From the NCBI RefSeq assembly GCF_004010195.1, contig NC_057755.1, positions 10,948,161 to 11,012,160 on the forward strand: DNA of 64,000 nt. The letters run 5' to 3'. Position numbers and translations under genes: made by a program. The notes below the pieces were generated by a model. The model was not told where the DNA came from. It saw only the letters and a program-made list of their open reading frames with translations, and ran no database searches. This stretch comes from Chiloscyllium plagiosum. Lineage: Eukaryota. This document shows, in pieces, positions 23,132-54,719 of the stretch; position 1 is the stretch's first letter; every line of letters begins with the position of its first letter.

Positions 23132-23999
23132 AATACCTTATTCTGTTGATTAACTTCTCACTGAATTGAGTTTGTGTTAGAATGTATACGCAGCTGTTCG
23201 TGCACAAACTCAAAAGTGTAGCATGAATCCAATTTCTTAAAAGACAAATATTGAAATTTTCAAGGTTCTGTCCTTATAATTATAGTTTACTGCTCGCCGG
23301 ACTAAAACTGTATGACAAGTGGTGTCAACAACAGCATAAATTTAGCAGAAAATGCAAAGAGCAAGATGGTAGATTTTCTCCAGGTGATTACCTGTGATTC
23401 AGTATTATTTTCTTCATTTCCGTGCATCTGGAAGCAAGAGCGGATATGGTTGGCTCTTACAATATGCTTGACTGTCAGAGCATTGAATATCAAAATCGAT
23501 ACAATTGGAAGTAATGTTATCATTATAATGTTAATCAATACATTCTCTTTCCAAAAAATGATGAGTAATAATCTGATATTATGATGCAAAACCAGAGCAC
23601 ATTATCAATAACAACTGAAGGAGTAAATACAAAGTACCAAATGATTGAAGGCTAATAGCTGACCACACTCACAGTTGCTATCACCGCAAATGCAGTTCCC
23701 GTATTACAATATCTTGCTCTCAGCTTCTGGCAACAAACTGCTACAAACTGATCAAAAGTGAAAGCAACTGTGAACCAAATCGATCGCTCCAAGTCTGCAA
23801 CATAGAAACCAGCTCTCAAGGCAAACAGGAGTAATGGATAAGAAAGTAACTGGAAAATACAGACTGTTAATTAAGTCCAGTAAGACATTAAGTATGACGA
23901 AAAGTAGATCTGCTGTAGACATTGCCAACAAATAGTGAGAGATGCATTTGGAGAGCCCAATAGTGCCTCTATTCACGCTCACAATTCCCACTAAATTAA
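23132..23999 (-). pseudogene. GPR139/GPR142-like GPCR pseudogene 1, exon 2
   Basis: Acceptor ttttacttgcag precedes NLVGIVSVNRGTIGLSKCISHYLLAMSTADLL...WFTVAFTFDQFVAVCCQKLRARYC...TNSCVYILTQTQF. Frameshift near 23820, in-frame TAG near 23656, and further lesions. Confidence 0.92.
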
Positions 24000-24411
24000 C
24001 TGCAAGTAAAATAAAGAAAGGGACGCTCCTTCATGGCTGGGGTCACAGCAANNNNNNNNNNNNNNNNNNNNNNNNNNNNNNNNNNNNNNNNNNNNNNNNN
24101 NNNNNNNNNNNNNNNNNNNNNNNNNNNNNNNNNNNNNNNNNNNNNNNNNNNNNNNNNNNNNNNNNNNNNNNNNNNNNNNNNNNNNNNNNNNNNNNNNNNN
24201 NNNNNNNNNNNNNNNNNNNNNNNNNNNNNNNNNNNNNNNNNNNNNNNNNNNNNNNNNNNNNNNNNNNNNNNNNNNNNNNNNNNNNNNNNNNNNNNNNNNN
24301 NNNNNNNNNNNNNNNNNNNNNNNNNNNNNNNNNNNNNNNNNNNNNNNNNNNNNNNNNNNNNNNNNNNNNNNNNNNNNNNNNNNNNNNNNNNNNNNNNNNN
24401 NNNNNNNNNNN

Positions 24412-24835
24412 AGCTTTTCTCTGGTTTTCTTTGCTTCGAACAGACTGTCAGTGGTGAACCTGCTGGGCCAAAAGAAACAGATTAAGGCTGATCCGCCTCG
24501 CTCTCCGGCATCTCTCCTGTGACACCCTGGATTTGATTTTAGCTTTTGTGCCAAAGGGTGTTTATTAGGATTGTTGCAAGTATTTACAGCAGCAACGGTA
24601 ATTCAGGACAACTGTTGGGTCTTCAGAATGGATTACATTATTCTCTATTCTGTTCCCTTTTGTTTGTATTTCATCAGATAATCTTGCAAATCAATTCTGT
24701 TTTGTTTAAAACTAAGTAGTTGGGCCAGCTGCATCACAACTGGAATATTCACTTGACAGTTTAAAGGATTAGCAAATTTAGGGTCTGGGCTACTTTCTTG
24801 AAATGCTTTGAGGAGTTCTGGCCTGGTGCATAATG
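24412..24835 (+). mobile_element. Partial LTR of the Gmr1-like Gypsy family, inside the pseudogene 1 intron
   Basis: Reverse complement is similar to LTR starts at 44943 and 49361 (ttatg.accaggccaga...catttcaagaaagtagcccagaccctaa). Confidence 0.75.
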
Positions 24836-25390
24836 GATTCGTTATTGTGTGTAGCCATTGGGCGTGCACAGAGATAATTCATCAAACATAATTTAAAAGC
24901 AGCGAGCTTCGTTCGTGATGCGTGGATTCCAGAAAATATTGGAAGCGGTATCACTGAGAGTATTTGAAGAAGAGATCGATAGATGTTTGAAATATCAAGG
25001 AGTTGCGAGTTATGTGGATCTGGAATGAAAGAAACGTTGAGATTTGGGTCAGATGATTATGTAGAATAGATGGCAGATTTGAGGATCACCTGCTTCTGCT
25101 CCTGTTTCCCAGATTCTTATATGACATCATGATTTTTTAAACATCATTGAATTGTGAGAATTCAAGCTTTGAAGAAGATGGACCTATGGGAGGAAGAACT
25201 TTAAAAGGAATAAGCAAAATTACCTTTTTGTACAATCCTGTTTGATCGTTGAACAATAAAAAGAAACCTGGGTAAGAACAGCAGAGTGCAGAAACCGAAG
25301 TAAAAGGAATTGAGGACCACACTCAGAAATGGATCCATTGATGTAGGGAGGAGAAATAGACAGAAGTATACAGTAATCAATCAACTGTTT

Positions 25391-25738
25391 AGGTGTGGCA
25401 CGGTGAATCTGTGGACAGCACTGCTGCCTGACAGTGCCAGGGACCCGTGTTTGAATTCATCCTCGATCGACTGTATGTGTGGAGTTTGCACATTGTTCCC
25501 GAATCTGTGTGGGTTTCCTGAGGTGCTCCTTTCACAGACCGAAGATGTGCAGGTTTGGTCGATGGGCTATGGTAAGTTGACCCATTGTATCTAGGTATGT
25601 GCATGCTAAGTGGGTTAGCCATGCGAAATGTAAAATTACAGAATCAGGATGAGGGCGTGGTGGGTCTAGATTTGAATATCTGAGGAGGATTGGTATAGAC
25701 TAAACGGGCCGAATTTCCCACATTTTAACGTTTCTATG
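25391..25738 (+). mobile_element. Degenerate HE1/V-SINE (paralogous copy at about 41010-41380)
   Basis: tgtgtggagtttgcacattgttcccgaatctgtgtgggtttcc V-domain. Confidence 0.75.
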
Positions 25739-28618
25739 AACTGTTCTGCAGAAGGAAATTCAGGCAATATGAAAGTGCTGAAATGGCAGAACTGATGAAA
25801 AACAAACGTCATCCTCCCAGAACCTGTTATCCTCCAAGTTTCCCTTGGCACGAGAATTTCTACTTAATAAAATGATGATGTTAAATTATTCAAACGAACT
25901 TTATTCCTATCCCAGGAATAAAAGAAGAACACCTTTAACTGATGACTTGAAAACCAAGGTTGGAATAAAAATATGTGCAAGTGCTGCACAGCCATATTTG
26001 ATTTGACTGACTTCCCTTTGTAGACAGTGGCAGATATTTAAAAGCATCGAAACGTTTTCCAAACCAATCTGTTCAGAGATGCCACATTTGGAACAGGTGG
26101 GCTCTGAACCTGAAACTCACTAATCCACAGTTCGGAATACATGTCACCAATATAATAGAGTGGAATATTGCTGGGAATGCACTGTGGACCCAATGTATCC
26201 CACCTGATCGACATTGTGACAGTAAGATTGTAAACGTACATATTAATTAATCCCAAGCATCATGTTGTGTAATTATTTATTAAAGCTCATAACAGACAGA
26301 CCCCGAGGCAGCAGTCATTATATAAACAGAACACGTTGCTGTCAATGTGAAGGTTTGGAATTAAAGTCGTTGTTCATTGTTGTGTTTGGTAATGCATGAC
26401 AATATTTTACATGTTCTGCAAATCACTGTACATTCAACGAACAAAACATTTGATCACAGAACTACTCGATCACCAGGATTTAGAAAATATATCTTTCAAT
26501 ACTAACACTAAGAAAATTATTGTAATCATCACAAATAAACGAACTGAGAGTGAACTATGTGGAAGGAGTGACGCTGTGATCTCAGTGAAAGTCTCATGTA
26601 CTCATTAGCTTAATGTACTCATTTGTAGATATTTAAAACATTATTCAACATATCATGAGCAGTTTTGAGCCCTGTGTCTAAGGTGGATGTGTTGGACCTG
26701 AAGCGGGTTCAGAGGAGGATCATATGAATGATTCTGGAGATGAAGGATTTGTCTAATGATTAGCGGTTGAAGACTCTGGGTTTGCACACAAACGGGGATT
26801 AGCAATATGAAGGGGAATCGGTCGAAACTTTCAGAATACTGGGAGACCTGGATGGAGTGGACACGCAGAAGTCGATTCACTAATATGACACTTCAGGACC
26901 TCAGGGCACAGCCGCAGGTTAAGTAGACATCTATTTAGAAAATACATGAAGAGGATTTTCTTCAGTCAAAGTATCATGAGGCAGTTAAGGTTATTGCCAC
27001 AGACAGGGTATGGAGACTAAGCCACTAAATGTATTGAAGAAGGAGATATTTTTTGATGAATTAAGTGGTCAAAGTTGCAGAGATAAAGCAGTACAATGGG
27101 ATTAAGAAACATGTCGGTCACGATTAAATGGCGGGGCAGATTTGATCGGCCAAATGGACAAATTCTACTTCTATCTTATCTTCTTCTGGTCTTCCGGAAA
27201 GTAGCAAATATCATTTGATCGACACAAGTATCAGGCAATTACCGTCTTCAACAAAAGAGTTTCTAATCATTGCCCTTTGATATTCAATGAAATTGCTATT
27301 ATGCAGTCCTTCACTATCCACATTCTGGGAATTAACATTGACCCAAACAAGCCCTGGCTTAGCCATGTAAGTGTAGTTGCTAGAAGTCCAGGTCAGAGGC
27401 AAGGAATCATGCTGAGAAAATCTCATCTCCTGGCTCCGCAAAACCTGACCCAGCATCTACAAGGCACAAGTCATGACTGTGATGGAATGCTTCCCATTTG
27501 CCTGAATGGGTGCTTCTTCAACAACACTCAAGAAACTCAACATCATTCAGGACCATGGAAAATTCAGAAAAGGATTAATACCAGACTTGAAACCTTCACA
27601 TTTGTTTTTCTCTCCACGGAAACTGACAGATCTGCAGAGTTTATCAAATGCTTACTTTGTTTATTGCAGATATCCAGCATACGGGGTAGTTTGCCGTTAT
27701 TCCAGAAAAAAAAATCAGCCTGCTTGTTTCCCCCCATCCACAAACCTTCAGTCTCTCACCTGCCACTGATGCTCAGTGACAGCAGGGTGTACCATCTAAA
27801 AGGCACATTGCAGCAGCTCACCAAGATCCCTCAGACAGCGCCCTCTCACCCTCACAGCCACTACTGTCTGGAAGTAGCAGATAGATGGCAATTAAACCAC
27901 TTGCAACTTCCGTTCAAGACACGACCTTTCTGTTCTGGGAATACATCACCATTTCTTCAGTCTTCCTGGAGCAGTTAAAATAAATTCTGACAGCTCCATG
28001 GAAAGGTTTACGTGGATATGCGCAAAATACATGCAAATGTGACAAGTTTAGTTTAGGAAAACTGATCAGCGTGGATGAGTTGGACCGAAGGGTCTGCTTC
28101 CGTGCTCAATGATTCTATGTGGGTGCACTTACACAAAATGGTCTTCAGTGGTTTGAGAAGACAGCTCACCACCACCTTCTGAAGTGTCACCCGAGATGGA
28201 GGTTAAATGCTGACACGGCCTGCTCTGTATTCGAAATAAATTCCAATTGCAAATGCTTGCAAAATATTTACAAATAAATCTGCATCTACAGACGGATGGA
28301 AACAAAAACAAAATGACCTACTGCTGAAACCAGAAAGCACAGATAGGTTAGAAATTATCAAATCCAAGGCAAGTATGTCAAATTTCAATTTAAAAAAGAG
28401 GGAGTTGAGTTAAATAATTTTTTCACAAACATAAAAACCGAAAGAACTGTGCTGTAAAATCAGAATCAAAAACAGAAGTTGCTGGAAAAGTTCTGATGAA
28501 GCGTCACTAGGCCAGAAATGCCAGCTCAGATTACTCGTCCCTGAAGCTGACAGACCTGCTGTTTTTCAAGCAACTTCTGTCTTTGTTTATGCAAATATAA
28601 CTGGATTTGAGGACTTAC

Positions 28619-28763
28619 CACTAACGCGAACAGCTGCAAATATCGCGTGGTAAAACTGTAAGATTTCTGAGTAATTCCTTCTGTCCAAGTCAGATAGGTC
28701 TGTTTCTGTGGATCCAATTATTGTGTCCACCGAAATACAATAATATTGTCAACACAACTTCAT
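28619..28763 (-). pseudogene. Probable exon 1 of GPCR pseudogene 1
   Basis: ATG at 28763 gives MKLC*QYYCISVDTIIGSTETDLSDLDRRNYSEILQFYHAIFAAVRVS-G then gtaagt. Phase-1 donor matches the acceptor at 23999. FYHAIFAAVRVS resembles IYYPILAITGVP of the intact paralogue. Confidence 0.65.
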
Positions 28764-29596
28764 TTTATTTGGAAGCTAAATGTCCATGCGACAAAAAAGT
28801 CTAGTTGAAACACTAATTACATTAGTTGCAGTAATCCGAACATGCAGCAAAATAACCGCTTTCCTCTGTGGTTTATTTCGTAGTGGAATCAATTTTAAAG
28901 AATAAAATGTCACTAATTTCTTAAGAATTCAAATTTGATGTTATTGTCATATGTACACAAGTACAAAATTTCGTGAGTACATTGAAAAGTGGTCAAAGAT
29001 AACATTCCTAGATCCAACTCAGTACAAAATCTTAGGTACGAAGTACAGACATAAAATTAAAACTGAAAAGATGTATTTTGAAATCTTTCGTAAGGCTGAA
29101 CAATGCACTCCAGTTTGCAGTAAAAATATTCTGTACTACACTAAGAGGTAGCTTTCCCATCAGTATTGCCTTTTTAATCAATTTTAAAAGCTGGAAATAT
29201 TCTTCCAGTGAGTTAGAAACTCACAGGAGTCGGTGATCAGGCCCATATCTTCCTAATGAAAGAACGGAGGTTGACATTTCTAAGGGGGGGTTTCCATGCA
29301 AGTTGCCATCAGGAGTGTGGAACCATACTTCCATCCGAAAAGATCTTTCTGGGCTAAAACTGTCTTATATTGTGTAAAGTCAGTGTGATTTGACAGTGCT
29401 GTAACAGTAAAGTACCAGGAGGATAATGAGGTAGGGCACCAGGTTGATAGGGAGCAAGATTATGTAGGGTGCTAATGTGCCAGGTATACAGGATGCTGAC
29501 CGTTGAGGAGTTAGAATACCAACTAGGTTCTGGGTAGTGTAGCAATTGAGGTCTCTCGCTTGTGCCGTTAACGTGGCTGACAGACATAAACAGGTG

Positions 29597-30828
29597 TACA
29601 TAGAACATAGAACATAGAGATGTACAGCACAGAACAGGCTCTTTGGCCCACAATGTTGTGCCGAGATTTAATCCAAATGTAAAATATTGCTATTTAACCT
29701 GCGCATCCCTGAACTCACTGCTATCCATGTGCATGTCCAGCAGTCACTTAAATGTCCCCAATGACTCTGCTTCCACCACCTCAGCTGGCAACTCATTCCA
29801 TGCATTTCTAACTCACTGCATAAAGAACCTACCTCTGATGTCTCTTTAATACCTTCCTCCCAAAAGCCTTCAAACTATGACATCTCATAACAGTCAATCC
29901 TGCCCTGGGAAAAAGTCTCTTGCTATTGACTCTATCTATACATCTCATTATTTTTTAGACCTCGATCAGGTCGCCTCTCTTCCTCCTTCTCTCCAGAGAG
30001 AAAAGTCTGAGCTTATTCAACATTTCTTCATAAGGCAAGCCCTCCAGTCGAGGCAGCATTCTGGGAAACCTTCTTTGCACCCTCTCCAAAGCCTCTGCAT
30101 CTTTCCTATAATAGGGCGACCAGAACTGAACACAATATTCCAAGTGTGGTCACACCAGGGACTTGTACAGCTGCTGCAAAACCTCGCGGTTCTTAAACTC
30201 GATCCCTCTGTTAATGAAAGCCAAAACACCATATGCTTTAATAACAAACCTATCCACTTGGGTGGCAACTTTGAGTGATTTATGTACTTGCACAGCCAGA
30301 TCCCTCTGTTCCTCTACAGTCAAGAATCATGTCTTTAATCCTATATTTCGCATTCGAGTTCGACCTTCCAAACTGCATCACTTCGCGTTTATCAAGTTTG
30401 AACTCCAGCTGCCATTTCTCAGTCCAGCTCTGCATCCTGTCTTTGTCGTGCTGCAACCTGCAGTAGCCCTGTATGCTATCGACGACACCTCCAACCATTG
30501 TGTCATCGGCAAACTTACTAACCCACCCCTCAACCTTCTCATCCAAGTCATTTATAAATCTACAAGTGCAGACGCCCAAGAACAGACCCCTGCGGGACCC
30601 CACTCAACACTGTCCTCCAGGCAGAATACTTTCCATCTACAACCACTTTCTGTCTTCTGTCGGCCGGCCAATTCTGAATCCAGAGAACCAAATTTCACTG
30701 TACCCCTTACTTCCTGACTTTATGAATGAACCTACCATGGCGAAGCCTATCAAATGCCTTGCTGAAGTCCATAGACACCACATTCACTGCTCGACTCTCG
30801 TCGACCTGTCTTGACACCTCCTCAAATT
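29597..30828 (-). mobile_element. 5'-truncated CR1 LINE
   Basis: FINDLDEKVEGWVSKFADDT and EYCVQFWSPYYRKD..LERVQRRF; (catagaa)n tail at 29597. Confidence 0.93.
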
Positions 30829-30879
30829 ACAAATTCTATCCCTCAGAATCCTTTCCAAAACGTTGCTGACCACAATGTC

Positions 30880-33726
30880 AGGGTTCTGTTCTGAGTAAAC
30901 CAGTCCAGTGCCCAGTACTTTACATGGAAAGCCCACCTACAGCTCGCTTGCAACAGTTAAATTGCTCAGCAACATCTAAATCAGAACCAATCGAAACAAA
31001 CGTCTGGTTAAATGGTCACCTGTTTCGAATGGAGGCAGATACCAGCACAGCCGTATCAGTGTTTGCAGAAACAACCTTTAACAATGATCACTCGGGACTC
31101 TTTCTCCTAAGTCTCTGTAAGACCTCAGCTGGACTGCGAACCTATCTGAGGGTAACTTTACAGATTAAGGTGACAACTACGATTCTGGGCTCGTATGAGA
31201 TGCAACTGGCTCAGTTTCCACTTAATTCATTTTGATTGGCTCAGCATTTTGCGTTTTTATTTCTCTCATTTACGGAAGGAGGGCGTCACTGAATAACCAC
31301 CATTTATGTCTATCCCAGAGGGCAGTTAAAAGTCAACAATAGTCTGGAATCGCATGTAAACCAGACCAGTTAAGGACAGCACTTTCCATTGTGCAATAAT
31401 CGGCAATGCATTCCTGGTCATGCCAGACCCTTGATTCCAAATATATTTTGAATTCAAATTCCACCACCTGCTGTGGCAGGATTTCAAAGTGGGTCCCTGG
31501 GATAAGAGTCCCTCGACAATACCTACTAGGCCATTGCCACACCAGTGGAGTGAAAGACGGGTTTGAGTTAAATCCGGATGAAATACCCAGAACTTAATCA
31601 GGAAGGTGTAGGGATTCCCAACGGAATGAAGGCCACCTGGCATGTTGACCAAGAAGCAATTCCCCACTTCTGCGAGGCCCGCCTAGTGCCATTTACTCCA
31701 CATGGAAAGGCAGAGGCAGATATCGGGAGGCTAGAAAGGGAAGGAATCCTCAACTCAGTACAGTTTGCAGAATGCCAGCACCAGTGGTACCGATTGTGTA
31801 ATCTGATTGGTCGTTTACCATTGTGGGGATTTTAAGCAAACTGTAAATCAGTTCTCACAGCTGTATAAATACCCAATCCCTCATTATAGTACTGCATTAT
31901 ATCATGTGGAGCATGGGGGAGTGTCCCGAGAAAAGATGCCCATCACCAACTGGCTAAACACCAGCAGGGTTGTCCAAGGGTTTCCAAACTAAAGATGCTG
32001 ATGAGACATTATGTCTGGTGACCCGAATTAGATGCCAACATAGCCACGTCAGTGGGGCAGCGTCCAGCGTTATAACAGTGATAAATATTACATCCCATAC
32101 TCCTGGAATCTGCGGGGTAAGCGCTGAACTCAATGACACGTGGATTATACAGATCCTTTCATGGGTACGATGTTCTTAGTTATTGTGCATGCCCATTCAC
32201 AGTGATCCCAGTTCATTCATCAATTTCCATAATGATGATTGCAAAGCTGTGAGCATCATTTGCAAGACACAGACTTCCGGGAGTATTGGTCAAGGACAAT
32301 GAGATGTAATTTCGCAGTAGGTATTTGTGTTAGTTTCTGACGTTGAAATGCATGTCCAGACGGCTCCATAACATTCACCAACCAATGGTCTGATGGAAAG
32401 AGCAGTCCAGTCATTGAAAGCAAATTTAAAGAAACAGACAACATCTTTACTCGATACCAAACTATCCCGGGTCCTGTTCGATTATACAACCACCCTCACA
32501 TGACAAAAGGAATAGCTCCAGCAGAGGTGCGGATGGGGAGAAGGATCTGCACCCCATTAAACCTGACATTCGCGGAGCTGGGAGGCGGGTGAAGCAGCAC
32601 CAGGAACAAAAGTATCAGAGAGAGAGAGTTTACTTCAGCGAACGAAGTTTGATGTTGAATCCACAGAAATGGCCGTGTGTGGGACCAGGCGAGGTTGATG
32701 TGAGAGCAGGGCCTGTCACTTACAGAGTTTGGGTAGGTGAGGAAATCTTGAACAAACATGCAGAACATATGAAAGCTGTTGACTTTTAAACTGTCTCCTC
32801 AGAACAGCCAGAAAGTTGCCATGTCCCTCTGTGTCTAGCTTCAAAGGAAGTTCCGACTCGGAGATGGATGCAGCCTCAGTAGTGTTACTGCCTGAGGAGG
32901 ATGAGGAAACCCTGCCGTGACACTCTGGGGGCTAGAAACTGCTTATGGTCCAGTAAATGTCACCTATGTCAGAGTCAGAGGAACCAGATCTGGTATGAAA
33001 ACGCCCTGGGAGAAGCTACGAGAGAATGAGCAGGTGTGCGTTCCAAGACTTGGTGGGGGAGTAATGTCGTCATTGGAACTAGGGCCAGGTGGATCATTCA
33101 ATATGAGATCGTTGACTGGGACTGATAACCTGGGCCAATTATGGAGCTGTGGCTGGCAGTGGTAAACTGGAGATTGTATCTGCCAAGTGCATGTCCCTGT
33201 TCTGCAGTGATGTTCGAGGCAGTGTGTCCTTGGAGAGGGAGCACGCAGTGTCCACCAATGCTTTTGATGCCTTTCGGGAGAGGTTGTCTTTATCCTTCAC
33301 TTTCTTTTTTGGGTGGAGGCCTTGCCCCGATTGGGCTTTGCTTGTTAATGATTCCCTGTCTATATGGGTGTTTTTACCTGGTGGTGGAATTATAGCATAA
33401 AGTTCTTGCACAACGGTGTCATTTTTAAGGAGCCTGTACATAGATATACACACACACACACACCCGCCGCCCCTCCCCTCCCCCCCCCCCAGACACACAC
33501 ACACAGCCACTGGTGTGATGTGGGGACAATGTAAGCACCACTGAAGTGCTGTGGTCGTGTAGGAGATAAATTAAAAAAAAAAGAAAAAGGGAACACAGGA
33601 AAACCCAGCAGTGCGTGCTCACTTTCGGCAATGTCTTTGAGCTGGCGGGGTGGACCCCACGTATTGTGTTCTTGTAAATAAAGGGAGACTTGGTGACGGA
33701 ATACCGGCCTTTCTGCATTTATTTCA
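30880..33726 (+). mobile_element. Decayed Gypsy LTR retrotransposon (protease, RT start, integrase remnants, 3' LTR 33061-33726)
   Basis: VWLNGHLFRMEADTSTAVS (protease), RLEREGIL, CGDFKQTVN, HTPGI, TTLT..GIAPAEVRMGRR; LTR end aataaagggagacttggtgacgg...atttca. Probable 5' LTR remnant at about 29510-29596. Confidence 0.85.
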
Positions 33727-33910
33727 GGGTTAAATTAATGCATTCCATTGATATGAATGACAATTGATTGGAAATCTGAACAGGAATGAAAGAGAACAGT
33801 CACGAGTGTGTTGGCAGATTGAGTCTGGCGAGTGCAACATGGGAGAAAGCTAAATCCCAAACTGTTTTAATCGCTTAAATGAGCACAAATCACCAGGTCA
33901 GATTTGTGTG

Positions 33911-34110: not shown

Positions 34111-34121
34111 CAGGTCAGATT

Positions 34122-34155
34122 TGTGTGTGTGTGTGTGTGTGCGCGCGCGCGCGCA
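34122..34155. repeat. (TG)n(CG)n alternating purine-pyrimidine tract
   Basis: Direct inspection. Confidence 0.9.
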
Positions 34156-35429: not shown

Positions 35430-36319
35430 TATTTTTCAAAGTGTAATAGTTATTTTACTCCGTTGATTAACTCCTTTCCGAATTTGGTTTGTGGTAGAGC
35501 ATATATGCAAGTGTTGGCGCCAAAATTCAGAAGCCATAGCAGGAATCCGATTTGTTGAATAACAAATATTGGATCATTGAAACTCTTATTTTCATAATTA
35601 TAGTTTATTACTTGCCAATTGAAAGAGTTTACAACATCAGTCATCTACAAGAGTATAAAATTAGCAGACAACGCAAAGAGCAAGATGAGTACTTTATATG
35701 AGTGACAACGACTGGATTAGTGGTATTCTGTCCACTTCCGTGGATTTAGAAGTAACAAAAGATACGGTTCAGTGTTGTAAGATTCCTGACAGTCAGAGCA
35801 TTGAATATCAAAATCAATACAATTGGAAGCAATGATGTAATCATACTGCCAACCATCCACACACTTTCCAGAATAATTATGTATCATAGACTGATTTTCT
35901 GATGCAAAACCAGGGGACATTGTCAATAAAACTAAATACATTAATACAGAATACGAAGTAATTGAATGCAAACAGCAGACCATACTCATAGCTACTGCAA
36001 CTTCAAACCCAGTCCTCGTACTACAATATCTTGCTCTTAGCTTCTTGCAAACAATTGCGACAAATCAATCAAATGTGAAAGCTACGGTGAACCAAACTGA
36101 ACAGTCTAGTGCTGCAAGGAACAAAGCAGCTCTCAAGGCAGACTCAGTAGTGATGGATGAGGATGTAACTGGGGAATAAACGTTGTTAATTTGGTACAAG
36201 TAAGACATTAAGAATGACGAGAAGTAGATCTGCTGGAGACATTGCTATCAAATTGCGAGTGATGCATTTAGAGACCCTAAAATTCCTTGGTGTCAGGTTC
36301 ACAACTGTCACTAAATTAA
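35430..36319 (-). pseudogene. GPR139/GPR142-like GPCR pseudogene 2, exon 2
   Basis: Acceptor mutated (tttctttcaa instead of cag). Reads NLVTVVNLTPRNFRVSKCITRNLIAMSPADLL...DCSVWFTVAFTFD*F (TGA at 36067-36065)...DPIFVIQQIGFLLWLLNFGANTCIYALPQTKFGKELINGVK*. Confidence 0.92.
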
Positions 36320-38339
36320 TTGAAAGAAAAACAAAGTAACATCCATTCCTACATGACAAGAGTTAAAGCAGAAATTTCAGCAAAGCATATCTGCTAAATC
36401 AAACCAATTGGATCAAAATAATATATTAATTATACAATGCACAGTCAGAATTTACAACGGAATTATTGACACAAGCAAACTAGAATGAACTGAAGACATG
36501 TTGGGAGACAATAGACAAGCAGAGTAAATCAACAAATAAATGAGAATAAAAAAAATAATAAATTTTATACTTTAGTGCAAGTATGTCATGCTGACAGATT
36601 CACTGAAATATTTAACAGATTTTTCATACATACTAAACTGGTAATGGAAGAAAAGATCAAATTATTATAATAATAGGAAAAGTTATGTCACATCAGGAAT
36701 TGAGCACATGAGCAATTACTGCACTATATATGTTTTTATGAAGTGGAACTGAGATGGTTGAATATGAGGGTTTGGTTAGTGGGCAGGTCTTTCACTGACC
36801 GGGTCCCACGCTTTCTCATGTATGCAAGTCACAAATCTGAAGAGGCTGTTGACGTGGTGAAGTAGAGATCGGAGATGAGGATGGATAGGAGCACATGAGA
36901 ATCATTATGGAACTTGGTAAGTGAGGCACTTTATAAGAACAGTAAGACCGAAATGGAAGGTGTGATTACAGCCCGCTTGGTTGGTAATGCATTACAAAAA
37001 TGTATCCAGATCCACCACCACCAATATACTGTAGCATCAGTATGTACTAGATTCAATGCAGAAATTCATCAAAGATTCTCAGACAGTAGCTTCCACACCC
37101 ACAAACACTTCCACACATAAGCACAAGGCATTTGATACATTGGTACATCACCCCCTGCAAATTCCCTTGAAGAAACTCTCCATCCTGAATTGGAAATACA
37201 AAACTTCCACCACTTTCGCTGGGTCACAATCACGGATCTCCCTACCCCAGGGCATTGTGGGAAACCCATAGCAGGCAGGCTGCAGCAATTCAGAGAAGTG
37301 TTATCAACTTCTCAAGTGGCAACGCGGGACAGCGATTAAATTCTGGTCAGCCAGCTCACATTTCACACATGAATGGGAAATATAACTAGTTAGAATTCAA
37401 AAGGCAGTTAGAAGATTTCAATTAGTGCTCAGATCACTTGTGTCTACAAGGTTAAATTGTGTGGAGTGATATGAACAGTGTTTTTTGGGCAGAATGGTGT
37501 AATGAATCACTCACCACCCGCAGTCTACTTTTAGTATCAAAGAGTTTATTGATGTTACACCAGTGGGAGGAAACCTCTGGGGTTCCAGAAGCTTCTTCAC
37601 TGAACAAAGGAAAGGCTTAAGCGTTTCTACAATAATTTTATCCCACCATTAGAGGCATCTCAGATTATTAATATCTTGCATACTTACACACCCAATGTAA
37701 ATTGTCATGTGTCTGTGTGTTAATGATGTCCAGCCATAATAAAAACTCCCCTGTCGACTATGATGTCATGATGTTTCCCAGTTGCCGTTATCTCTTTCCT
37801 TGGAGCTTTCACAGTGAGCGCTGTGTATCGCCACATTCCAAAACTCTGACGTCTAAACCTGCATTTCAATCTTCCCTGCAATAATGTGGGAGCCTTCCCT
37901 TTCTGTCAAGAAGATTTTTAGTGGAATCTCTTTAATGCTTATTCAGTTTTTTTTAACGATATGAGCCTATGTACTCAAATTTACAAATTCAAAATATATA
38001 ACAATGAACACCTAGAAACCTCAACTACTGTAAATCTAATTGTGATGGCTCGCAGTCTAAGGAATTCTTCTATCAGCCTATTCAAGGGTGTCCGAATCCA
38101 GATGTTTCTTCATGACAACTGCAGCTGCATGACTCTATTAGGACCCTTTGTATACCATCTTAAACTGTTTCCTTGGATATAATCTATCTGCAACGCTACA
38201 ATTGTCATCAATCATGCATTACGCCAACACTGCACCAAACAATGGTTATGAAGTTACAAGACATGCACTGGGCCTTTAAGAGTAAGGGAGTGCTAAACTG
38301 AACTGAGAGATAGTAAGCAACTGTGCATATGAAGACGGA

Positions 38340-44940: not shown

Positions 44941-44942
44941 CC

Positions 44943-47900
44943 TTTATGGACGAGGCCAGACCTCCTCCAAACATTTCAAGGAAGTAGCCCAGACCCTAAC
45001 ATTGCTTGTTATTTTAAACAGGTGGATATGCCAGGAGTGATGTAGCTGATCAAACCACTTAGTTTTAAACAAAAAAAAAATTAGTTACAAGATTACCAAA
45101 CGAAACACAAACAAAAGAGCACTATTTAGCAAATATCATAATCTATCCGAAAACTCAAGACATTATCCCAACTTTATGATGCTGTTCCAAATACTTGCAA
45201 CAATTCTAATGTACACCTTTTGGCCCAAAAATCAAAATTAAACTCGTGGCCTTACAAGAGAGGAGCCACAGAGAGGGGAGGATCAGCCTAAACTTGCTTC
45301 TCTGGGTTCAGCAGCTTTTACAACATTATTGCTAAAAACAAAACAAACGAAACCAGCATTAAGCAAAGCTGAGAGAACTGATCACTCGCCTTTCATTGTA
45401 TGAGTGTTTTTTTTTAAACTTAACAGCCTTTATTCCTGAGGCAGTAGCTGTTAGCTGTAATAAAATTGCCCCTAAAACCCTACAATTAAACTTCGCAGAG
45501 TTTGGGAATTTTAAGATCTGTCTGGAAAAAAAACCGAGGACAACAAAACGTGGTTAAAGGAGCAGCATAATGACGTTTTACCTTCCTGCCACATTCACAA
45601 TTTTCAAATTGAACGTCGACAATAACAAGCACAATCGAAACAGTCTGGCATTTTGTCCCTAAATTTCCCCACAAACTTCAGTGGGTTATGGTCAGTGTAT
45701 ATGATTGTCTCAGATATGTTACCAGTAACGTAAACATTAAAATGTTGTAAGGTCGACACCAAGCTCAAAGTCTCCTTCTCAACTGTCGAATAGTTTTGAT
45801 TAATGTTCAATTTCCTGGAGAAACATCCGATAAGTCTTTCGATCCCCTCATCATCTTCCTGTAAATTCACAGCAAAGGCAGTCACATCACTTACATTGAT
45901 CGCCACCTTGAATGGAGTTTCATAATTTGGCGTGGCTAATAGTCAGGAAATTATTTTAGGCTGACAGATGTCTTCTGGCGGTTCCATGTCCACTGAAACC
46001 TCGTGCCTTTCATGAGCAATTCAGTGATTGGAGCAGAGACACTGCTAAAATTCCGTGTGGATTTTCGATAAAATCTACTCCATCCCAGGAACAGTCGTAC
46101 TGCTCTTTTTGTCGATGGTATGGGAAACTCCCCAATTACGTTTGTTCTTCCATCCCGTGGTCCGTGCCCAATAACATGGCCCAGGAAGGCGACTTGGGTT
46201 TTTTGCAAATTCCCATATCCCAATCATCTGGATAGTTTTGACTATAAGACAACCAGCGTGTTCTTTAATGTCTTATGCCAGCTTTCTACCACTTACTACG
46301 ATTATGGGTGGAAGGCTGTATATTTGAATTCTTTTACTCCTAAACCATCGATAACATCCTTGCATAATTTTGACGTGAAGTTTAAACCTTGATCTGTCTG
46401 TATCTCTGTGGGTAGTCCATATCTCATGAAAAATTTGAGTAATTTATCTGCACTCCTTTTAGCTGTGATATTGCAGAATGGGACGGACTCTAGAAATCTA
46501 GTAGATGCATCCTTCATTACGAACAAAGACTGATTCTCACTTTTGCTTGAGGTCGGGGTTCTATGCAATCAATTGTAGAAAGTTAATGCACATGAATAAA
46601 AAGGAATCAAAGCTGTGGCCTTTTTTTACTGTCTATGTTTTTTTTTCAATTACCTGACATGTATGGCTTGTCTGGCAAAATTCAACTTTATTCTTGCGCT
46701 GTTCAGTCCAGTAAAAATGTTTTTATTTCTCTCACTCCAAAATGATCCCTAGTGGTTGCCATTCACAACACTTCCTGCTATAACCTAAGAGCAATATGAT
46801 TTGGTGAACTCCTGTCCATGTCTCATCTACCTCAACATGTGATGTTCTCCACTACTTGATTAAGGCATAATTTTTAATGAAAATAATATTCAGGGATGCA
46901 TTTGAATTCTTTTCTATGGATGGTTTTTGATAGAATTGCTTTAAAGTTGCATTCTTCTGCCGTAACTCAGTTAATTTATCTGAGCAAAAGATATCTGATT
47001 TGTCATCTATCTGCTCCTGGTTTGTGTCAACTATTTGATCAAACAGGATTTCTGCTAATTCCACTTCAAATTCGTTACCTGTACTCTTTGATCTCTCTTG
47101 TCTCAGCTGGAGATTTTGTGGCAGCATTACCACACAGTCAGGAAAAATCCTACGATATGTCCCTGCAGTAGTTTAGTTGCCTGATTTTCTCTGGCATTTC
47201 AACCACAGTAGGCAGCACTCTTACCTGTGAAGCAGCACTATCGGTAGCAAGGAAAATTATTTTCCTGGAGCAGACAGTTTGTCCAGTACTCCTACCACGA
47301 CTTCTCCACTCTTCAATAGTCACCCTAACCTCACTTTACATCTTCGTGGTGCTTCTTGTCTCACCACGAATTCCTATTGCTAGCATCGATTCTGGCAATA
47401 CTCTTTTAGAGGTACATAACGCCTCGTCTTTCAACATCAAAGAATGAGAGGATTCGCTACCTCTTAATATTGTAACCTCTTTGCCTGCTGCTCCTGGCCT
47501 ATGTGAGTAAACTTTACCTTTGCAGATTTATGGCTTAAGAAGACCTGGCACTTCCTCTGTAACGAAACTTCGACCAGGTTGTATATTCCAGTACAGCTTT
47601 CTATCTGCCACTGTGCTTTCCGTTATCAATCCAACAATATTCACTGGCTTATCCTGTTTTCCTATGTCTGGCTTCCCAGTGCTTTTGCTAAACTAATAAT
47701 ACTGTGATTTATTCTGGCCTACTTTATTGCAGTGAAAACACCAGAGTTTTTTAACTTCCCTTTTTTACACTGTAGTAAGTTATCCTTGTGATCTTCCCGG
47801 AGATTTGCCTTTCCTTTTCCACGCAAAGATTTCAGTTTTCACCCATTTTTATCCCTTAAAGGTTAAATTGATTTCTGGAATCTAAACATTGGTCTATGGA

Positions 47901-49990
47901 CCATTTCAATGATAGCAATTCTAATCATAGAATCACTACAGTGTGAAAACAGTCTCTTCGGCTCAACAAGTCTATACGACCTTCTGAAGACTAACCCTTC
48001 TACCCTATCAGTCTACATTTGTTCCTGACTAGCACACATAACCTACACAACCTTGAACACTAAGGGCAATTTGGCATGCCTGATTCACCTAACCGGCACA
48101 TCTTTGGACTGTGGGCAGAAACCGGAGCACCCAGAGGAAACGCACGCAGACATGGGGAGAATGTGCACACTCCACACAGACTGTCGCCCGAGTTTGGAAT
48201 CGAACCTGTGCCCCTGGCGCTGTGAGGCAGTAGTGCTAACTACTGAGCCACCATGCCGCCGCTTTCAGCCATTTCAGCTGCTAATCTTGCCGTTTTCACT
48301 CCCTACTCTTCCACATGGGTTCTCACTATTTCAGGAAGTCAACTTTTATGCTTCTCCAAAATAACTGTCTGTCTAAGAGCGTCAAAGTTTTGTTCTGTTT
48401 TAATGTCCTTATCCACCCATTAATATTACTTTGTTTAATCCTTTCAAAGTCAGTATAGATTTGACCAGGGTACCTCCTTAGATTCCTGAACCGTTGTCGA
48501 TAGGCTTCTGGCACAATTTCACCTCCAATTAAGGTGGCTTTCTACACTTCCTCATATGCCCCATATGCCTTCTTTGCAAGTGATGTGAATACTTCATGTC
48601 CTCTGCTTGCAAGTTTTGTTTGGATCAACAAAACCCACTTGTTCGCTGGACACTGCATTTGTTTAGCCACCTTTCCAAATGGGATGAAGAGGAATTCTAC
48701 ATCCATATCATCAAATTTAGGCAACGCTTGTATACATTTAAACAGATCCTCACCAGGTCTTTGGCTATCGTGTATTTGCACATCCTCACTCTCTTCCTCA
48801 TTAAGATTTCCTTTAGCTTCAGCCACGTCCTTTTAAGCTGACATTCTTGTCTAGATGTCAAATTTTGAAGTTCAACTTTCTTCTCTTTCTCCCTTTCCTC
48901 TCTCACCTTTCCTCTCTATTCTCTCTCTCTCTTTCCTCTGTTTTAATCGTACTTCAAATAGTTTCATTTCTGTTGCTCTTTCCTTGTCATTTGCCTCTAA
49001 CTCAAGCTGTTTCATTTGAAGTTGACTCTTAGCCATCTCTAACAAATTTAAATGCTGAGCTATTGCTGAAATTATCTCTCCTTTCCACGTGGAAGGAGGC
49101 AGCTCTAATTGCACGGTGTCTGCTAATTCCAGAATCTTGGTCTTTTTCCCCTTTTTCAAGATCCCCAAAAGTCAATTTTTCTTCCGCCAGAAAACTCTTG
49201 GTGACTCAAAAAGCCATTGCGATCCCAAACACAGTTCATACCAACCGAAATCAGCACACAGAACAAAATACAGTAAGGCCTACCCCTCGCTTCCTTCGAC
49301 TCCAACAACCCAAATCCCAAATCGGAATGATAGAACAATTCCAGCAAAGAACCCCCAATCTATTATGGACCAGGCCAGACCCGCTCACACCATTTCAAGA
49401 AAGTAATCCGAACCCTAACTTTGCTAGTTGTTTGAACAGGTGTACAGTGGATCTTCCAGGAGTGATGCAGCTGGCCCAACCACTGAGCTTTAAACAAGTC
49501 AGAATTTATTTGCAAGATTGCTGAATAAAACCCTTACAGTAGACAACCGAACATAAAATTTCTTAACCTGTCTGAAAACTCAACAGATTCTCCCAACTTG
49601 ACGATGCCGTTCCACGTTCCTGCAACAATCCCTATGGACATCCCTCAGCACAAAAGGTAAAATCAACACAGGGTCTTACAGGAGAGTGAAGATGGCGAAG
49701 GGATTCAGTATGGAACACCTTCTTCCATGGAGCTCTTTTTTTGCCCAACAGTCTCAAAACTGACTGTTTTCTCTGAACAGCCAGAATGCTCAACTCAAAC
49801 CAAACCAAAGCAAAGCAGAGTGAAGCTGAGCTAGGAGATCTGGCCACACCTCTTTTATCGTGCAAGTTTTATTTTTTTTTTAATTGAAAAGGTTCTTCAA
49901 GTAGATCAAGCCAAGCATTTCAGAATCTGTGTCTCGTAAAGAACTTTTAAAAAAAGTACATCACAACCTTGCAAGAGGGGCAGTATATTC
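44943..49990 (-). mobile_element. Decayed Gmr1-like Gypsy element with both LTRs (about 44943-45571 and 49361-49990)
   Basis: Gag (LPKFDDMDVEFLFIPFGKVAKQMQCP, PEAYRQRFR), integrase (MKDASTRFLESVP..RYGLPTEIQTDQGLNFTS), then RT/RNase H (FLGHVIG, NYSTVEKETLSLV, YTDHNPL). Integrase lies upstream of RT. Confidence 0.9.
47925..48260 (-). mobile_element. HE1/V-SINE inserted in Gypsy gag
   Basis: Reverse complement of the 13323 SINE with a complete 3' tail. Confidence 0.88.
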
Positions 49991-49994
49991 ACAC

Positions 49995-50860
49995 ATTACC
50001 CCAATCTCATTCCTGCCAAATACTGTTGTAATTAGCCTTCCCCAATTTTGCGCTTTCACCAGTATTATCCATGATCATTTTAAAACTTACAGAACTATAA
50101 TCATTGTTCCAAAAATGTTTCCCTATTGAATCTTTGATCACTCGTCCAGGGTCAATATGCATCAATACAAAGTCTAGTGTCGCCCCTTTCCTATTTGTAT
50201 TATCGACATGCCTTTTCAAGAAGCATTCTTGAATGCACCTAATAGATTCGGCCGCATCTAAGCTATTGGCACTAAGGAAGTCCTAGGGAGTATTATGGAA
50301 TTAAAACCATCCATCCATACAACTCTTTTCTTTTTACCTCTTTACAAGATCTGCTCACATATCTCTCCCTCTAATTCCCACTGGATATTGTGAAGCCTAT
50401 ATGATAACCGCATCGAGTTCATTGCACATTCCTTGTCGCTACACTTTACCAATATTGCCCTGCTGGATGAGTGGTCTACTCACTTACTTCAATTGGGACA
50501 TTCTGAGTTATCAGTACTATATCTCCTGCAATCTTTAGGACAACCCTCTGTGTCAAACCTGAAATCCCTTTACGCTGAAACATTGAGCTGTCTGTCCTGG
50601 CATTCTCTCAAACATGTTTCGCTCATGGTTACCACGTCCTAGTTCGTTGCATTAATCCTGGCTATAAGATTATGTGACTTATCTGTCACACTCTTTGCAC
50701 TTCAGGTCACCAGTCCTGCTGTATTCATGAACCTGGCATTGCCTGTTCTCCCTATTAACCGTACTTGATTTTGTCCCTCTGTTCTCTTCAATTACTCCAC
50801 ATACTGACCTGCTGCTCTGACTCACATTCCCCCACACACTAGTTTAAACGCTCCTGAGTA
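49995..50860 (-). mobile_element. Degenerate CR1 endonuclease/ORF1 fragment
   Basis: HVDNTNRKGATLDFVL...GKHFWNNDYSSVSFKM resembles CR1 APE motifs. Confidence 0.65.
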
Positions 50861-50861
50861 A

Positions 50862-51350
50862 ATGATCAGTTCTTTAATTTTGCTGAGATTGAGAGCGTGA
50901 TTGTCCTCATTGCATCACGTCACTAACCCTGTATCGCCCTTCTGAAATCTGACTTATCATGGTTAGACATCTGTCCTACAATGGTGATGTTTTCAGTAAA
51001 TTTGAAGATGACATTGTTTCAGAATTTGGAAACACGGTCCTCGGTGTAGAAGGAGTACAGTAGGGGGCTCAAGATTCATTCTTGAGTGTTATTATGGAGG
51101 AGGTGCATTTGCCTATCCTCACTGACAGTGGGCTGTGGGTCAGGAAGCTGAGGATCCGATTACAAAGGGCGGAACTGAGATCTATGTATTGGAGTTTTCA
51201 GATTAGTCTGGAGGCGATAATGGTGTTGACGGAGGAGCTGATGTATGAGTCTGATGTAGTTGTCCTTGTTGTCCAGATGTTCCAAGGGTAAGTGCAGGGC
51301 TGGTAAAATGGCATCCGCCGTGGAGCTGTTACATCAGCAGGCAATTTGTC
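50862..51350 (-). mobile_element. Rex1/Babar-like LINE RT fragment
   Basis: Minus frame ILSPLLYSFYTEDRVSKF*NNVIFKFTENITIVGQMSNHDKSDFRR resembles Rex1 LSPLLYSLYT..KFADDTTVVG. Confidence 0.65.
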
Positions 51351-51411
51351 GGGGATATCTGAAGCCCTTCTTCCCATACCAGCTTGTTATGCCCTCATTC
51401 AACTCTATTGT

Positions 51412-51755
51412 TTAGATTAGATTAGATTAGATTAGATTAGATTAGATTAGATTAGATTAGATTACTTACAGTGTGGAAACAGGCCCTTCAGGCCAACAAG
51501 TCCACACCGCCCCACCGAAGCGCAACCCCACCCATACCCCTACATTTACACCTTACCTAACACTTCGGGCAATTTAGCATGGCCAATTCACCTGACCTGC
51601 ACCTCTTTGGACTGTGGGAGGAAACCGGAGCACCCGGAGGAAACCCACGCAGACACGGGGAGAACGTGCAAACTCCACACAGTCAGTCGCCTGAGGCGGG
51701 AATTGAACCCGGGTCTCTGGCGCTGTGAGGCAGCAGTGCTAACCACTGTGCCACC
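51412..51755 (-). mobile_element. Young HE1/V-SINE with expanded (TTAGA)n tail
   Basis: About 10 copies of ttaga at 51412-51463; intact A/B boxes and V-domain. Confidence 0.93.
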
Positions 51756-53357
51756 TCACTAGAACATGGCACAGTATGTCCAAGACTGCAACCCTGCATC
51801 TCGATATATAGATGTGAAATTCTCATCTTCTGCTTGTTTATGGATTTAGTGCATCAAGTAAACCATAATAAACATACTTATTAAAGTTCGCACACTGTTG
51901 GACCGTGTGATGAAGGATTATGTGCTGATCACTACTATTCACACTGCAGTCTGATATGGTAAACTTCAGAACTTTAATCACTTTTCTGGGGTTGAAAGAA
52001 TAAGAAATCACTCTCTCCAGAATAGACTTTCCTGGGATGAAAGGAACAAGGGGAAACTATTGTAAAGAAATCAAAAGCGTCATGCCAATTAACCATCCCT
52101 GGCTACAAGGAGATGAAGCTTCACAAGCTGATTCCTGGGAAGGATGAGGAAACAACGGCTTGTTAACCTGATGCATCCTGACAAAACAAACAATTAAGAT
52201 TATCTGCAGAAGGAATATCAGACAGGACAGGCTGTGGTTTGAGAAGACATCTAACATCGAATGCAATAACGAACTAGGAAGCTACTCCTGCTAGGAAGGC
52301 AAGCTACAGACTTGATGATTCCACAAGAGCAATCATTGTTGCAAATGCCCAGATCTAAGAGTCATTGATGATGTCACACCACAGACATCATAGGTCAGAA
52401 AGGCCAACAATAATTCCAGGATGCTTCAGCAGCAGAAATCTGGAGAGCAACACGGGATAACGGTCAAATCCTGAACTCTTTCAGACACACACCCCAAATG
52501 TTTGGAGTTGTGGCTAAAGTTCACCATCAACTGGGAAATAGCCAAGTTGTGTTGTGAGGTTGAAGGATTCTTATTCTGGAGGCTTTTCCACAGAGAGTTG
52601 TTGGGACACATTCATTTCGTATACTTAATACTAAGACATGTAGATTTTTGATCAATTGGGGAAACAAGGGTTACGGGGAAAGGGCAGGAAAGCATGGATG
52701 CAGAACATCAGATCATCCGTGATGCGATTCGATAGCAGAGCAGGGGTGAGGGAGTGAATTATTGCAGTCGTACGGCCTAATCTCTATTTCCCACACTTGG
52801 CCCATAGCCATTGCAAGACTTGACATCACTAGTATGAATCTATCAGCCTTACAGGAAGTGAGTTCCAGATTCCATCATGCTGTGGATAAACACTTTGCCC
52901 TAACCTCCCTTCTAAATCTCCTGACCCTAGATTTAAATATATGATCCCTGATCATTGAGCTTTCTTCTAAAGAGAATTATTTCTTCCTCTCGACCATGTC
53001 TATGCCTCTCATAAGTAAATCCTCAGATTGCACCTTCCAAACCCATGACCACTTCCATCTAAAAGGACAAGGGCAGCAAATAAATACAACCTGCTACAGC
53101 ACTTGGACAGCAAATGTTGAGAAGGCAGCTCACCGCACCTTCTTAATGGCAATTATAGTTGGGTAATAAATGCTGGTCCAGCCAGTGATGCTCACTTCCC
53201 ACAATTATTTATCTTTTTAAAAAGACAATATCACTCGTGAATACTCAATGCAAATCTGCATATCAAGTGGAGATGTATGGTCAGAGACAGTATGAAATTC
53301 AAACATGAACCAATGACATGCATCAATTGGCGCTAGGAATTTTCTTTTTCAAACTGC

Positions 53358-54262
53358 TTAAAGTTTAACCAATCTTAGAATTAATGTCCAAGGAAATATC
53401 ACTAATTTCTTAAACTCTTCCCGGAATTTTCTCTGAATAGTTGCATAGATGCACGTATTTAAAGAGGAACTCAAATGCTTCAGCATTGCTCCGACTTCGG
53501 TAGCGATATATCCAGGAGCTGCATAGTCACCTCTGTAATTATTGGTGTTGGTCATTCTGGTCATTAAGAGGCTCACAGCAGTCGTCATCCAGAGCAATAT
53601 AAAACTGCTCGATATAGTGAGGAGCAAAATGATGGATTTCCTTCGGTTCTCCATCTCAAGATCACTTTGTGCCTGACTGTGGTGACCCCGGAGGTCCCTG
53701 CGCACTCTGCTGGCCACTAAAATTCGAGTTATTGTCAAAGAGTTCAATAAAATTATTAAGGCAAACGGAAGCCAGACGAGCATGATGCTATGAAACCAGG
53801 AGTAAGGTATTCCAACGGATAAGGACGAGAAAGCTGCACTTGTCCGGCAGCCCCACTGCACATTATTAACTGTTCGTTCAGCTTCATAGACAAATGCAAC
53901 AGAGATATCCTTGACAATGATAAAAATGGAGAAACTTATTATGACTATCGCAGCAGTTCTTGGTGCGCAATACTTTAATTTAATCTTTTGGTAACATAGA
54001 GCTACAAATCTGTCAAATGTGAAGGTGACCGTGAACCAAACAGATAAGTCAAGGGCAACAGCAGACAGGGACAGAATAACCCTGCATACAGGAGTGAGAG
54101 ACAGGAATGAAAGTGGAAAGTGGTAACTAAATATATAGTACAATATTACATTGTTGATCATGACCAAAAGATCCGCTGTTGCCATTGCTATCATGTAGAC
54201 AGAAATGCACTTCGACAGGCCACAGTTTCCCCGGAAGAGAATCATGATTGTCATCAGGTTTG
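53358..54262 (-). CDS. GPR139/GPR142-like class A GPCR, exon 2 (intact; spliced product 324 aa)
   Basis: Acceptor tattctcattacag; open frame with TM1-TM7, AMATADLL, Cys at the top of TM3, SVWFTVTFTFDRF, ECL2 Cys (WGC), FILLW, LNTCIY and helix 8 RKFR. Confidence 0.93.
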
Positions 54263-54649
54263 CTGTAATGAGAATAGTAGGAATAACTGAACTTAGATTT
54301 CTGATTGAATTGCACATGGACCTGCCTATAATAGAACATTTTAATCAATATACAGCTGGTAGAATGCAGCATTTTGAGTAGAGCATTGCAATTGAGACTG
54401 TTATCTAGGAAAGTTTGCCACAGTATAATCAGCTTCGACAACATTCACATTGCACATGGTGAAACAAAGCGTGGAAACCCAGAAAGGATAGCACATGAAG
54501 TGACTGCAGACATTTGTGGAGTTCAATAGTTTCTTCTTAGGTTGAATGAATGTAGAAGGTTCACACATGATAAATATGTTAGCTTGCGAAGCAGGCAATA
54601 TGGGCATAGATAGAGTTACCATCACACTAAAACACAAACAGTCACTCAC

Positions 54650-54719
54650 CGGGAACACCGGTAATGGCAAGAATCGGGTAGTAAATCTCCTTTATCTGAA
54701 AAAGAATCCATTGTCCCAT
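54650..54719 (-). CDS. GPR139/GPR142-like GPCR, exon 1
   Basis: ATG at 54719 gives MGQWILFQIKEIYYPILAITGVP-G then gtgagt. The phase-1 join across a 387-nt intron gives GVPAN, as in GPR139 YY...GLPAN. Confidence 0.9.

Follow-up and report, generated by a model that had tools for sequence, protein, structure and literature searches.

Introduction

Among receptors of known structure, human GPR139 (7vug, 9m42) is the best-scoring relative of the gene family described here. In the mutagenesis study devoted to this receptor, its ligand site is made up of F3x33, H5x43, W6x48, N7x38 and R6x51, and R6x51, N7x38 and F3x33 are required for the action of Trp, Phe and agonists (PMC5430874). As regards sharks, the whale shark genome paper describes cartilaginous fishes as being relatively poor in G-protein-coupled receptors (GPCRs) and having very few odorant receptors (PMC8455134), and the shark nose is presented as dominated by V2R receptors in two other papers (PMC6368271, PMC10116579). 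The present work concerns a stretch of 64,000 nucleotides (nt) of DNA from Chiloscyllium plagiosum, hereafter called the window (C46:10948161-11012160 in an assembly of 3.56 Gb), which contains three genes related to GPR139.

The three genes had been noticed in a first-pass annotation as co-oriented paralogues, one intact and two in the state of pseudogenes (A and B below). This was confirmed: they are located between positions 23133 and 54719, all on the minus strand. Of the outer limits given in that annotation, 23132 corresponds to the 3' end of A and 54719 to the ATG of the intact gene. In the reading that we favour, and for which we consider the chances to be about even, the intact gene with its two exons and the two pseudogenes with their frameshifts belong to a class A receptor family that forms a separate branch of the GPR139 superfamily. 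This family counts at least about 1,900 loci in the genome and would likely constitute a ligand-diversified chemosensory repertoire.

Results

One intact gene and two pseudogenes from two lineages

An open frame of 328 codons, from stop to stop, is present at 53358-54344 on the minus strand. It is preceded by a short first exon which codes for the N-terminus and the first half of transmembrane helix 1 (TM1), namely MGQWILFQIKEIYYPILAITGVP, followed by a split Ala codon; the intron sits two bases ahead of the codon of the TM1 Asn (1.50). The spliced product is 324 amino acids (aa) long. Exon 1 matches the corresponding exon of 10 paralogues, and the start of the product, MGQWILFQIKEIYYPILAITGVP-A-NLM, aligns with the N-termini of annotated shark homologues. 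In a genomic run bearing the same species label, the gene was covered at a depth of ~12-15x, with a single, synonymous difference at 53436.

The product matched the Pfam family PF00001 (7tm_1) with 55.3 bits (cut-off 30.5, E 8.7e-15). The framework of class A receptors consists of N1.50, D2.50, D/E-R-Y/F at 3.49-3.51, Cys3.25 together with a Cys of extracellular loop 2 (ECL2), P5.50, W6.48, N7.49 and Y7.53. Every one of these residues is carried by the intact gene (D2.50, C3.25, DRF, the ECL2 Cys, P5.50, W6.48, NTCIY), and Thr is found instead of Pro at both positions 6.50 and 7.50. Throughout the 47 family sequences that were compared, N1.50, R3.50, W6.48 and Y7.53 are invariant (47/47). The intact gene is thus predicted to encode a class A (rhodopsin-like) GPCR.

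When the window was searched with the open frame by tblastn, exactly three copies of the family were obtained, all on the minus strand, at 53361-54344 (100%), 35471-36332 (E 2.6e-19) and 23329-24012 (E 2.6e-31); nothing else rose above noise. Annotated homologues used as queries extended the two pseudogenes to the limits given in Table 1, and their lesions were scored against the closest intact relatives, which are L041 for A (82.0% nt identity) and L040 for B (79.2%).

The exon-2 boundary falls on the homologous base within TM1 in all three copies, as the first-pass annotation had stated. The two-exon structure that it had ascribed to the trio stands for the intact gene; in the case of A and B, we infer this state from the acceptor alone. 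Any exon 1 and intron of A are hidden by a run of N that covers their place, and no exon 1 of B was detected either with a profile of the promoter and exon 1 or by alignment of the upstream region. In the 450 nt upstream of seven intact relatives, conservation is close to the coding level, yet no exon 1 was recognisable.

A and B are 70.5% identical in the MAFFT alignment, or 73.3% over 893 bp by blastn, and their identities with the intact gene are 51% and 49%, so that the closer resemblance of the pseudogenes to each other was also verified. In contrast, the idea of one local birth-and-death cluster had to be abandoned. The trees assign the intact gene to one clade and the relatives of A and B to another, with a support of 99-100. 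Moreover, each pseudogene is more similar to its nearest intact relative than to the other pseudogene, and these relatives lie at 8.6-8.9 Mb on the same contig (C46), ~2 Mb away from the window. For these two reasons, the trio is better regarded as neighbours from two old lineages.

Four further copies of A (L032-L035; 94-97% nt identity) were found on the small unplaced contigs C48873, C50704, C96047 and C86221. At least two of them have the same 92-codon open frame as A, and the homology stops at the 3' end of the gene. They represent either a duplicated dead gene or unresolved repeats of the assembly.

Number and state of the family members in the genome

A search of the genome with the intact protein yielded 7,771 first-look candidates, and all the 122 that were scored matched it (E <= 4.5e-88, 50-60% identity). 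With a 67-aa piece of A, 4,083 candidates were obtained and 150 out of 150 scored matched; the two lists overlap little. Two short patterns were also counted over the genome. The first one, covering intracellular loop 1 (ICL1) and TM2, gave 406 matches (1 for the reversed control) and was present in 36 of the 42 fetched loci that served for calibration. The second one, W-F-T-x-x-F-x-x-D-R-F in TM3, gave 1,942 matches (control, 7) and was present in 23 of the same number of fetched loci. A looser ICL1 pattern (646 matches, control 10) was dropped, many of its listed matches being unlike the family.

The family comprises at least about 1,900 loci, a figure taken as a lower bound. The annotation had named a genome with only a few copies as a refutation of its reading; these counts show otherwise, and the lineage-expanded repertoire that it suspected is supported. 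Clusters of the family were located on contigs C46, C44, C49, C8, C37 and C7.

No stop interrupts 85 of the 122 matches to the intact protein, in a count made by hand and biased towards good copies. The 150 loci found with the piece of A contain 89 frames of 290-600 aa, 56 shorter ones and 5 ambiguous ones. Open frames are present in about 60% of the sampled copies, and ~37-40% are broken. The acceptor AG lies at the same base in all open paralogues tested (29/29), and the 23-codon exon 1 was located in 11 of these 29, the gene of the window (L001) included, with introns of 113-1187 nt.

Many of the TM3 matches carry one identical 32-mer, found at scores of places scattered along C8, outside any tandem array. 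Eight such dispersed copies, fetched from C8, C7, C4 and C5 (L043-L050), form a third clade in which 5/8 are open; they share ~44% identity with the window gene and 75-94% among themselves. Their flanks are homologous over ~1 kb upstream and 0.5 kb downstream, and CT-rich simple repeats adjoin them. This clade may have spread by a transposon-associated or segmental process.

Position with respect to GPR139 and its conserved relatives

The TM3 motif of human GPR139 has one match in the genome, on C21, and the gene in question (C21:58730750-58731712) is the true GPR139 orthologue (E 5e-158 to human GPR139). When used as a query, it retrieved itself, one gene on C24 (55% identity) and then members of the family at 27-35%. 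The C24 gene (C24:44307599-44308393) is provisionally called GPR142-like from its 55% identity to GPR139. The identity between the window gene and GPR139 is 26%. The position of the phase-1 intron in TM1 is common to the window gene, GPR139 and the GPR142-like gene, and that of the acceptor is also shared by L054, L055 and L057.

Searched against the PDB, the family profile placed GPR139 first with 58 bits (E 8e-15), a small margin over neurotensin receptor 1 (50.8) and the PrRP receptor (49.6). With the single window protein, the PrRP receptor came first and GPR139 did no better.

An unrooted tree of 51 rows was resolved into three groups, each of them forming one side of a branch supported at 100/99 or 100/100: GPR139 with the GPR142-like gene (100/100), a third conserved gene (10 rows, 100/99) and the expansion (39 rows, all from elasmobranchs). 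The stems of the three groups amount to about one change per site. All rows belong to these three groups, so that the tree has no outside root, and none of the stems is read as sister to another.

The third conserved gene is represented in this genome by L057 (G000:C98156:21290-22198), a member of the superfamily distinct from both GPR139 and the GPR142-like gene. Its relatives (P0121-P0240) come from sharks, rays, chimaera, coelacanth, lungfish, sturgeon, gar, bowfin and teleosts, with one protein per species in most of those listed and identities that range between 97% for another shark and 46% for a teleost; all of them are automatically named 'GPR139'. A derivation of the expansion from L057, which occupied the base position in the first tree, was dropped: upon addition of the orthologues, L057 separated into a group of its own.

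From these comparisons, the window gene is not a one-to-one orthologue of GPR139 or GPR142, an identity that would have refuted the first-pass annotation; the true GPR139 lies on C21 and the GPR142-like gene on C24. The expansion forms a separate branch of the GPR139 superfamily. The annotation had also anticipated that such genes might already carry an automatic GPR139-like name, and the label 'probable G-protein coupled receptor 139' indeed occurs in many sharks. A look-up in a protein atlas returned this automatic name and unrelated expanded GPCR clusters, and nothing more.

Selection on the open copies

Pairwise ratios of nonsynonymous to synonymous substitutions (dN/dS) were 0.15-0.29 in the clade of the window gene, apart from one young pair at 0.55 (dS 0.07), 0.28-0.52 in the clade of the pseudogenes and 0.24-0.57 in the dispersed clade. 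They are well under 1 in all 53 paralogue pairs, taken from five groups: the open copies are under purifying selection. Between the window gene and its nearest paralogues, dN is 0.26-0.30 and dS at least 1.06.

The intact gene has no paralogue above 60% identity in the genome (122 scored of 7,771 candidates). Another shark possesses a partial protein 82% identical to it, and family members at 63-69% identity occur in several shark orders. These three observations lead us to consider the intact gene as an old retained lineage. The family as a whole is kept across several shark orders and a ray.

Variability of the ligand pocket

The residues of the window gene that correspond to F3x33, H5x43, W6x48, R6x51 and N7x38 of GPR139 are, in this order, A, H, W, T and A, which means that 3/5 are replaced. 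Among the 47 family sequences, His 5x43 is found in 26, Trp 6x48 in all and Asn 7x38 in one; Phe does not figure among the eight commonest residues at 3.33, nor does Arg at 6.51. The sensing of amino acids, put forward in the annotation, thus gains nothing from the sequence, the replaced positions being the most variable ones.

Over the same sequences, 23 pocket positions have an average entropy of 2.03 bits and the 131 other TM positions one of 1.12; the extracellular halves of the helices reach 1.50, against 0.94 in the intracellular halves (p < 1e-4 in both permutation tests, relatedness among the sequences being uncorrected). Within the pocket set, variability is highest at 3.32, 3.33, 6.51, 6.52, 7.39 and 5.46. 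The variability of the family is therefore concentrated at ligand-pocket positions.

A conserved promoter module

Upstream of the intact gene lies a conserved module of ~110 nt, in which AT-rich blocks with TAAT-type cores, a TGATGAT motif, a dyad of the CTCC-NN-GGAG type and a TATA box ~85 nt before the ATG were recognised. The nhmmer profile built on the promoter and exon 1 has a single match in the window (54859-54641, E 2e-43) and finds 19 distinct promoters, that of the window and 18 others, with TATAA[AG] in 14/19. It has no match near A, B or their relatives. The paralogues that share the module have diverged almost to saturation at their synonymous sites. The palindromic TAATTAAT site of the intact gene is not conserved among the aligned paralogues.

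Features of the window

The coordinates are collected in Table 1. Outside the receptor copies, the long frames of the window show retroelement fragments only. A LINE-like element occupies 56799-59369 on the plus strand, in which a frame weakly resembling GDSL esterases (56799-57227) comes before a reverse transcriptase (58878-59369). Further pieces are an RVT_1 domain at 9615-10064 (minus strand), an RNase H domain at 45607-45942 (minus strand) and an integrase zinc finger at 62664-62963 (plus strand).

Table 1. Positions of the receptor genes, of the promoter elements and of other features in the window (UTR, untranslated region)
Feature	Position	Strand	Remarks
Pseudogene A, exon-2 homologue	23133-24021	-	5 deletions that shift the frame, 2 in-frame stops; CAG kept at the acceptor
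N run	24052-24411		directly upstream of pseudogene A
Pseudogene B, exon-2 homologue	35453-36338	-	5 indels that shift the frame, 6 in-frame stops; AG of the acceptor mutated to AA (CAA)
High-copy interspersed repeat	53030-53205		3' flank of the intact gene; summed contig depth 72,678 in the genomic run
Exon 2, intact gene	53358-54262	-	from the TM1 Asn to TAA (53360-53358); 300 codons + split codon
Intron, intact gene	54263-54649	-	phase 1, 387 nt; GTGAGT donor, ACAG acceptor (AG 54264-54263)
Exon 1, intact gene	54650-54719	-	70 nt; ATG at 54719
Promoter module + 5' UTR, intact gene	54720-54859	-	alignment with the upstream regions of 10 paralogues
Homeodomain-type site TAATTAAT	54739-54746	-	palindromic; presumed 5' UTR, 20 nt before the ATG
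TATAAG box	54801-54806	-	intact gene promoter, conserved module
Dyad element TCTCTGGAGGG	54817-54827	-	intact gene promoter

Discussion

The genome of this shark harbours a GPCR family which has the marks of a repertoire: hundreds of copies and more, genomic clusters and many pseudogenes. We infer that its members are sensors for varied ligands, external chemicals being the most likely ones. The product of every open copy would be a G-protein-coupled sensor whose ligand specificity differs from that of the others according to the residues at 3.32, 3.33, 5.46, 6.51, 6.52 and 7.39, and a short promoter belonging to each copy would drive its transcription in a type of sensory cell. Copies would be gained by tandem and dispersed duplication and lost by frameshifts and stops. 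Since four copies of A exist at 94-97% identity, dead copies would have been duplicated too.

Of two runs of poly-A single-cell RNA bearing the same species label, one (X6, ~6% of which was read) gave 0 reads, and the other (X5, ~2% read) gave 13, none of them on an exon. All 13 map at ~53102-53205, inside the high-copy repeat, with a partial fit only, and are uninformative on expression of the gene; as these poly-A reads partly match and one has an A-rich loose end, some copy of the repeat would be transcribed elsewhere. Several observations weigh against a chemosensory repertoire. In a paper on catshark sensory organs, no GPCR appears among the 50 genes most specific to the brain-and-olfactory library. 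Neither AATAAA nor ATTAAA is present within 1.36 kb 3' of the stop of the intact gene (52000-53360, minus strand), so that the 3' end of its transcript is not evident.

Furthermore, a collection of 5.8 billion proteins contains none that is at least 90% identical to the product of the intact gene, although a conserved gene of this shark has a 97% match in an annotated relative. Transcript support for the intact gene may consequently be missing there, and the orthologue seems to be either unannotated or absent. The list of pocket positions is a generic one rather than one computed from a structure, and variability on the extracellular side is expected in any GPCR family with varied ligands, immune and peptide receptors included. 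The coding regions of OR (olfactory receptor), TAAR, V1R and T2R genes are not known to be split by introns, whereas that of the present family is. As for the promoter, the canonical O/E site is TCCCNNGGGA, and O/E (Ebf) sites together with homeodomain sites typify mammalian OR promoters. The conserved dyad (TC.C..GAGG) fits the O/E site only in part and departs from it in its 3' half, for which reason the promoter is not called olfactory-type.

A first alternative, to which we attach a small probability, is that of an immune or leukocyte receptor repertoire, engaged in chemoattractant or pattern sensing, diversified by pathogen pressure and borne by blood or mucosal immune cells. Birth-and-death dynamics and a diversified pocket suit immune receptors equally well. 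CCR8, CCR1, CXCR2 and CCR4 are within the ten best PDB sequences for the family profile, mostly over TM6-TM7, and the title of a 2026 paper mentions a conserved OR gene expressed in immune cells. However, every chemokine receptor is outscored by GPR139 and neurotensin receptor 1, and no vertebrate immune GPCR family is known to have hundreds of members.

The copies might also be, for the most part, by-products of segmental or transposon-associated amplification with little or no expression, function being restricted to a small number of old lineages, among them the intact gene. The window itself is mostly retroelement debris, and the largest signal in the genome comes from the young dispersed clade, with its identical 32-mers over C8, its 75-94% identity and its shared flanks. 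The dN/dS ratios of the youngest pairs, up to 0.5-0.57, the share of broken copies (~37-40% of those sampled) and the duplication of dead ones (four copies of A, 94-97%) point in the same direction. This explanation is nevertheless unlikely in view of dN/dS values well under 1 in all 53 pairs, of promoters conserved between paralogues near synonymous saturation and of the retention of members across several shark orders and a ray.

Lastly, the receptors might serve neurons or endocrine cells and respond to amino acids or peptides of internal origin, in the manner of GPR139 and GPR142 but in many copies. This would agree with GPR139 as the nearest solved relative and with the shared intron position and framework motifs (His 5x43 in 26/47, Trp 6.48 in 47/47). 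It is improbable, however, given that the genome keeps GPR139, the GPR142-like gene and the third conserved gene apart, each as a single copy, that R6x51, N7x38 and F3x33 are not conserved in the family, and that a range of internal ligands to match ~2,000 loci with varied pockets is not plausible.

The chemosensory repertoire may be carried one step further, in a tentative form that we regard as possible but rather doubtful: sharks would have their own major chemoreceptor family of ~2,000 loci, originating from the GPR139 superfamily, in which each gene is driven by its own conserved promoter in sensory neurons, and which would be an additional class of vertebrate olfactory receptors missed by surveys. 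No published description of this expansion in sharks was found in the full-text literature, subscription journals being outside its coverage.

With ~1,900 or more loci, mostly open, selectively maintained and varied in the pocket, this would be the largest receptor family in shark genomes, with direct consequences for the range of stimuli perceptible to sharks. It also provides a series of naturally occurring pocket variants built on the scaffold of GPR139, a drug target, and the shared intron shows the route from a single-copy brain receptor lineage to a repertoire.

Comparison with known receptors

With the OR and TAAR repertoires, the shark family has in common that it belongs to class A, that its copies number in the hundreds or thousands, form clusters and include many pseudogenes, that variability is focused on the pocket, and that short promoters lie near the coding exon. 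It differs from them in its intron-split coding region and in having no sequence kinship with them beyond class A. Expression in sensory neurons and the choice of one receptor per cell are further features of the OR and TAAR systems.

Within the superfamily, the third conserved fish gene resembles the expansion in its automatic name, in its acceptor position and as one of the three central stems, but it is mostly present once per species, and the expansion is not nested inside its group. The GPR142-like gene has the intron position and the superfamily in common with the expansion; it is, in contrast, a single locus and groups with GPR139 (100/100).

GPR139 itself is similar to the family in its phase-1 TM1 intron, its W-x-T-V...DR[F/Y] motif in TM3, its W-x-H...P...LNS motif in TM5 and the absence of Pro at 7.50. 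Unlike the family and its ~1,900 loci, it is a single locus as judged by its TM3 motif; a branch supported at 100/99 separates it from the family, and its identity to the window gene is 26%. Finally, in the numbering of our alignment, GPR139 has a Cys neither at 3.25 nor in ECL2, whereas both are present in the shark family.

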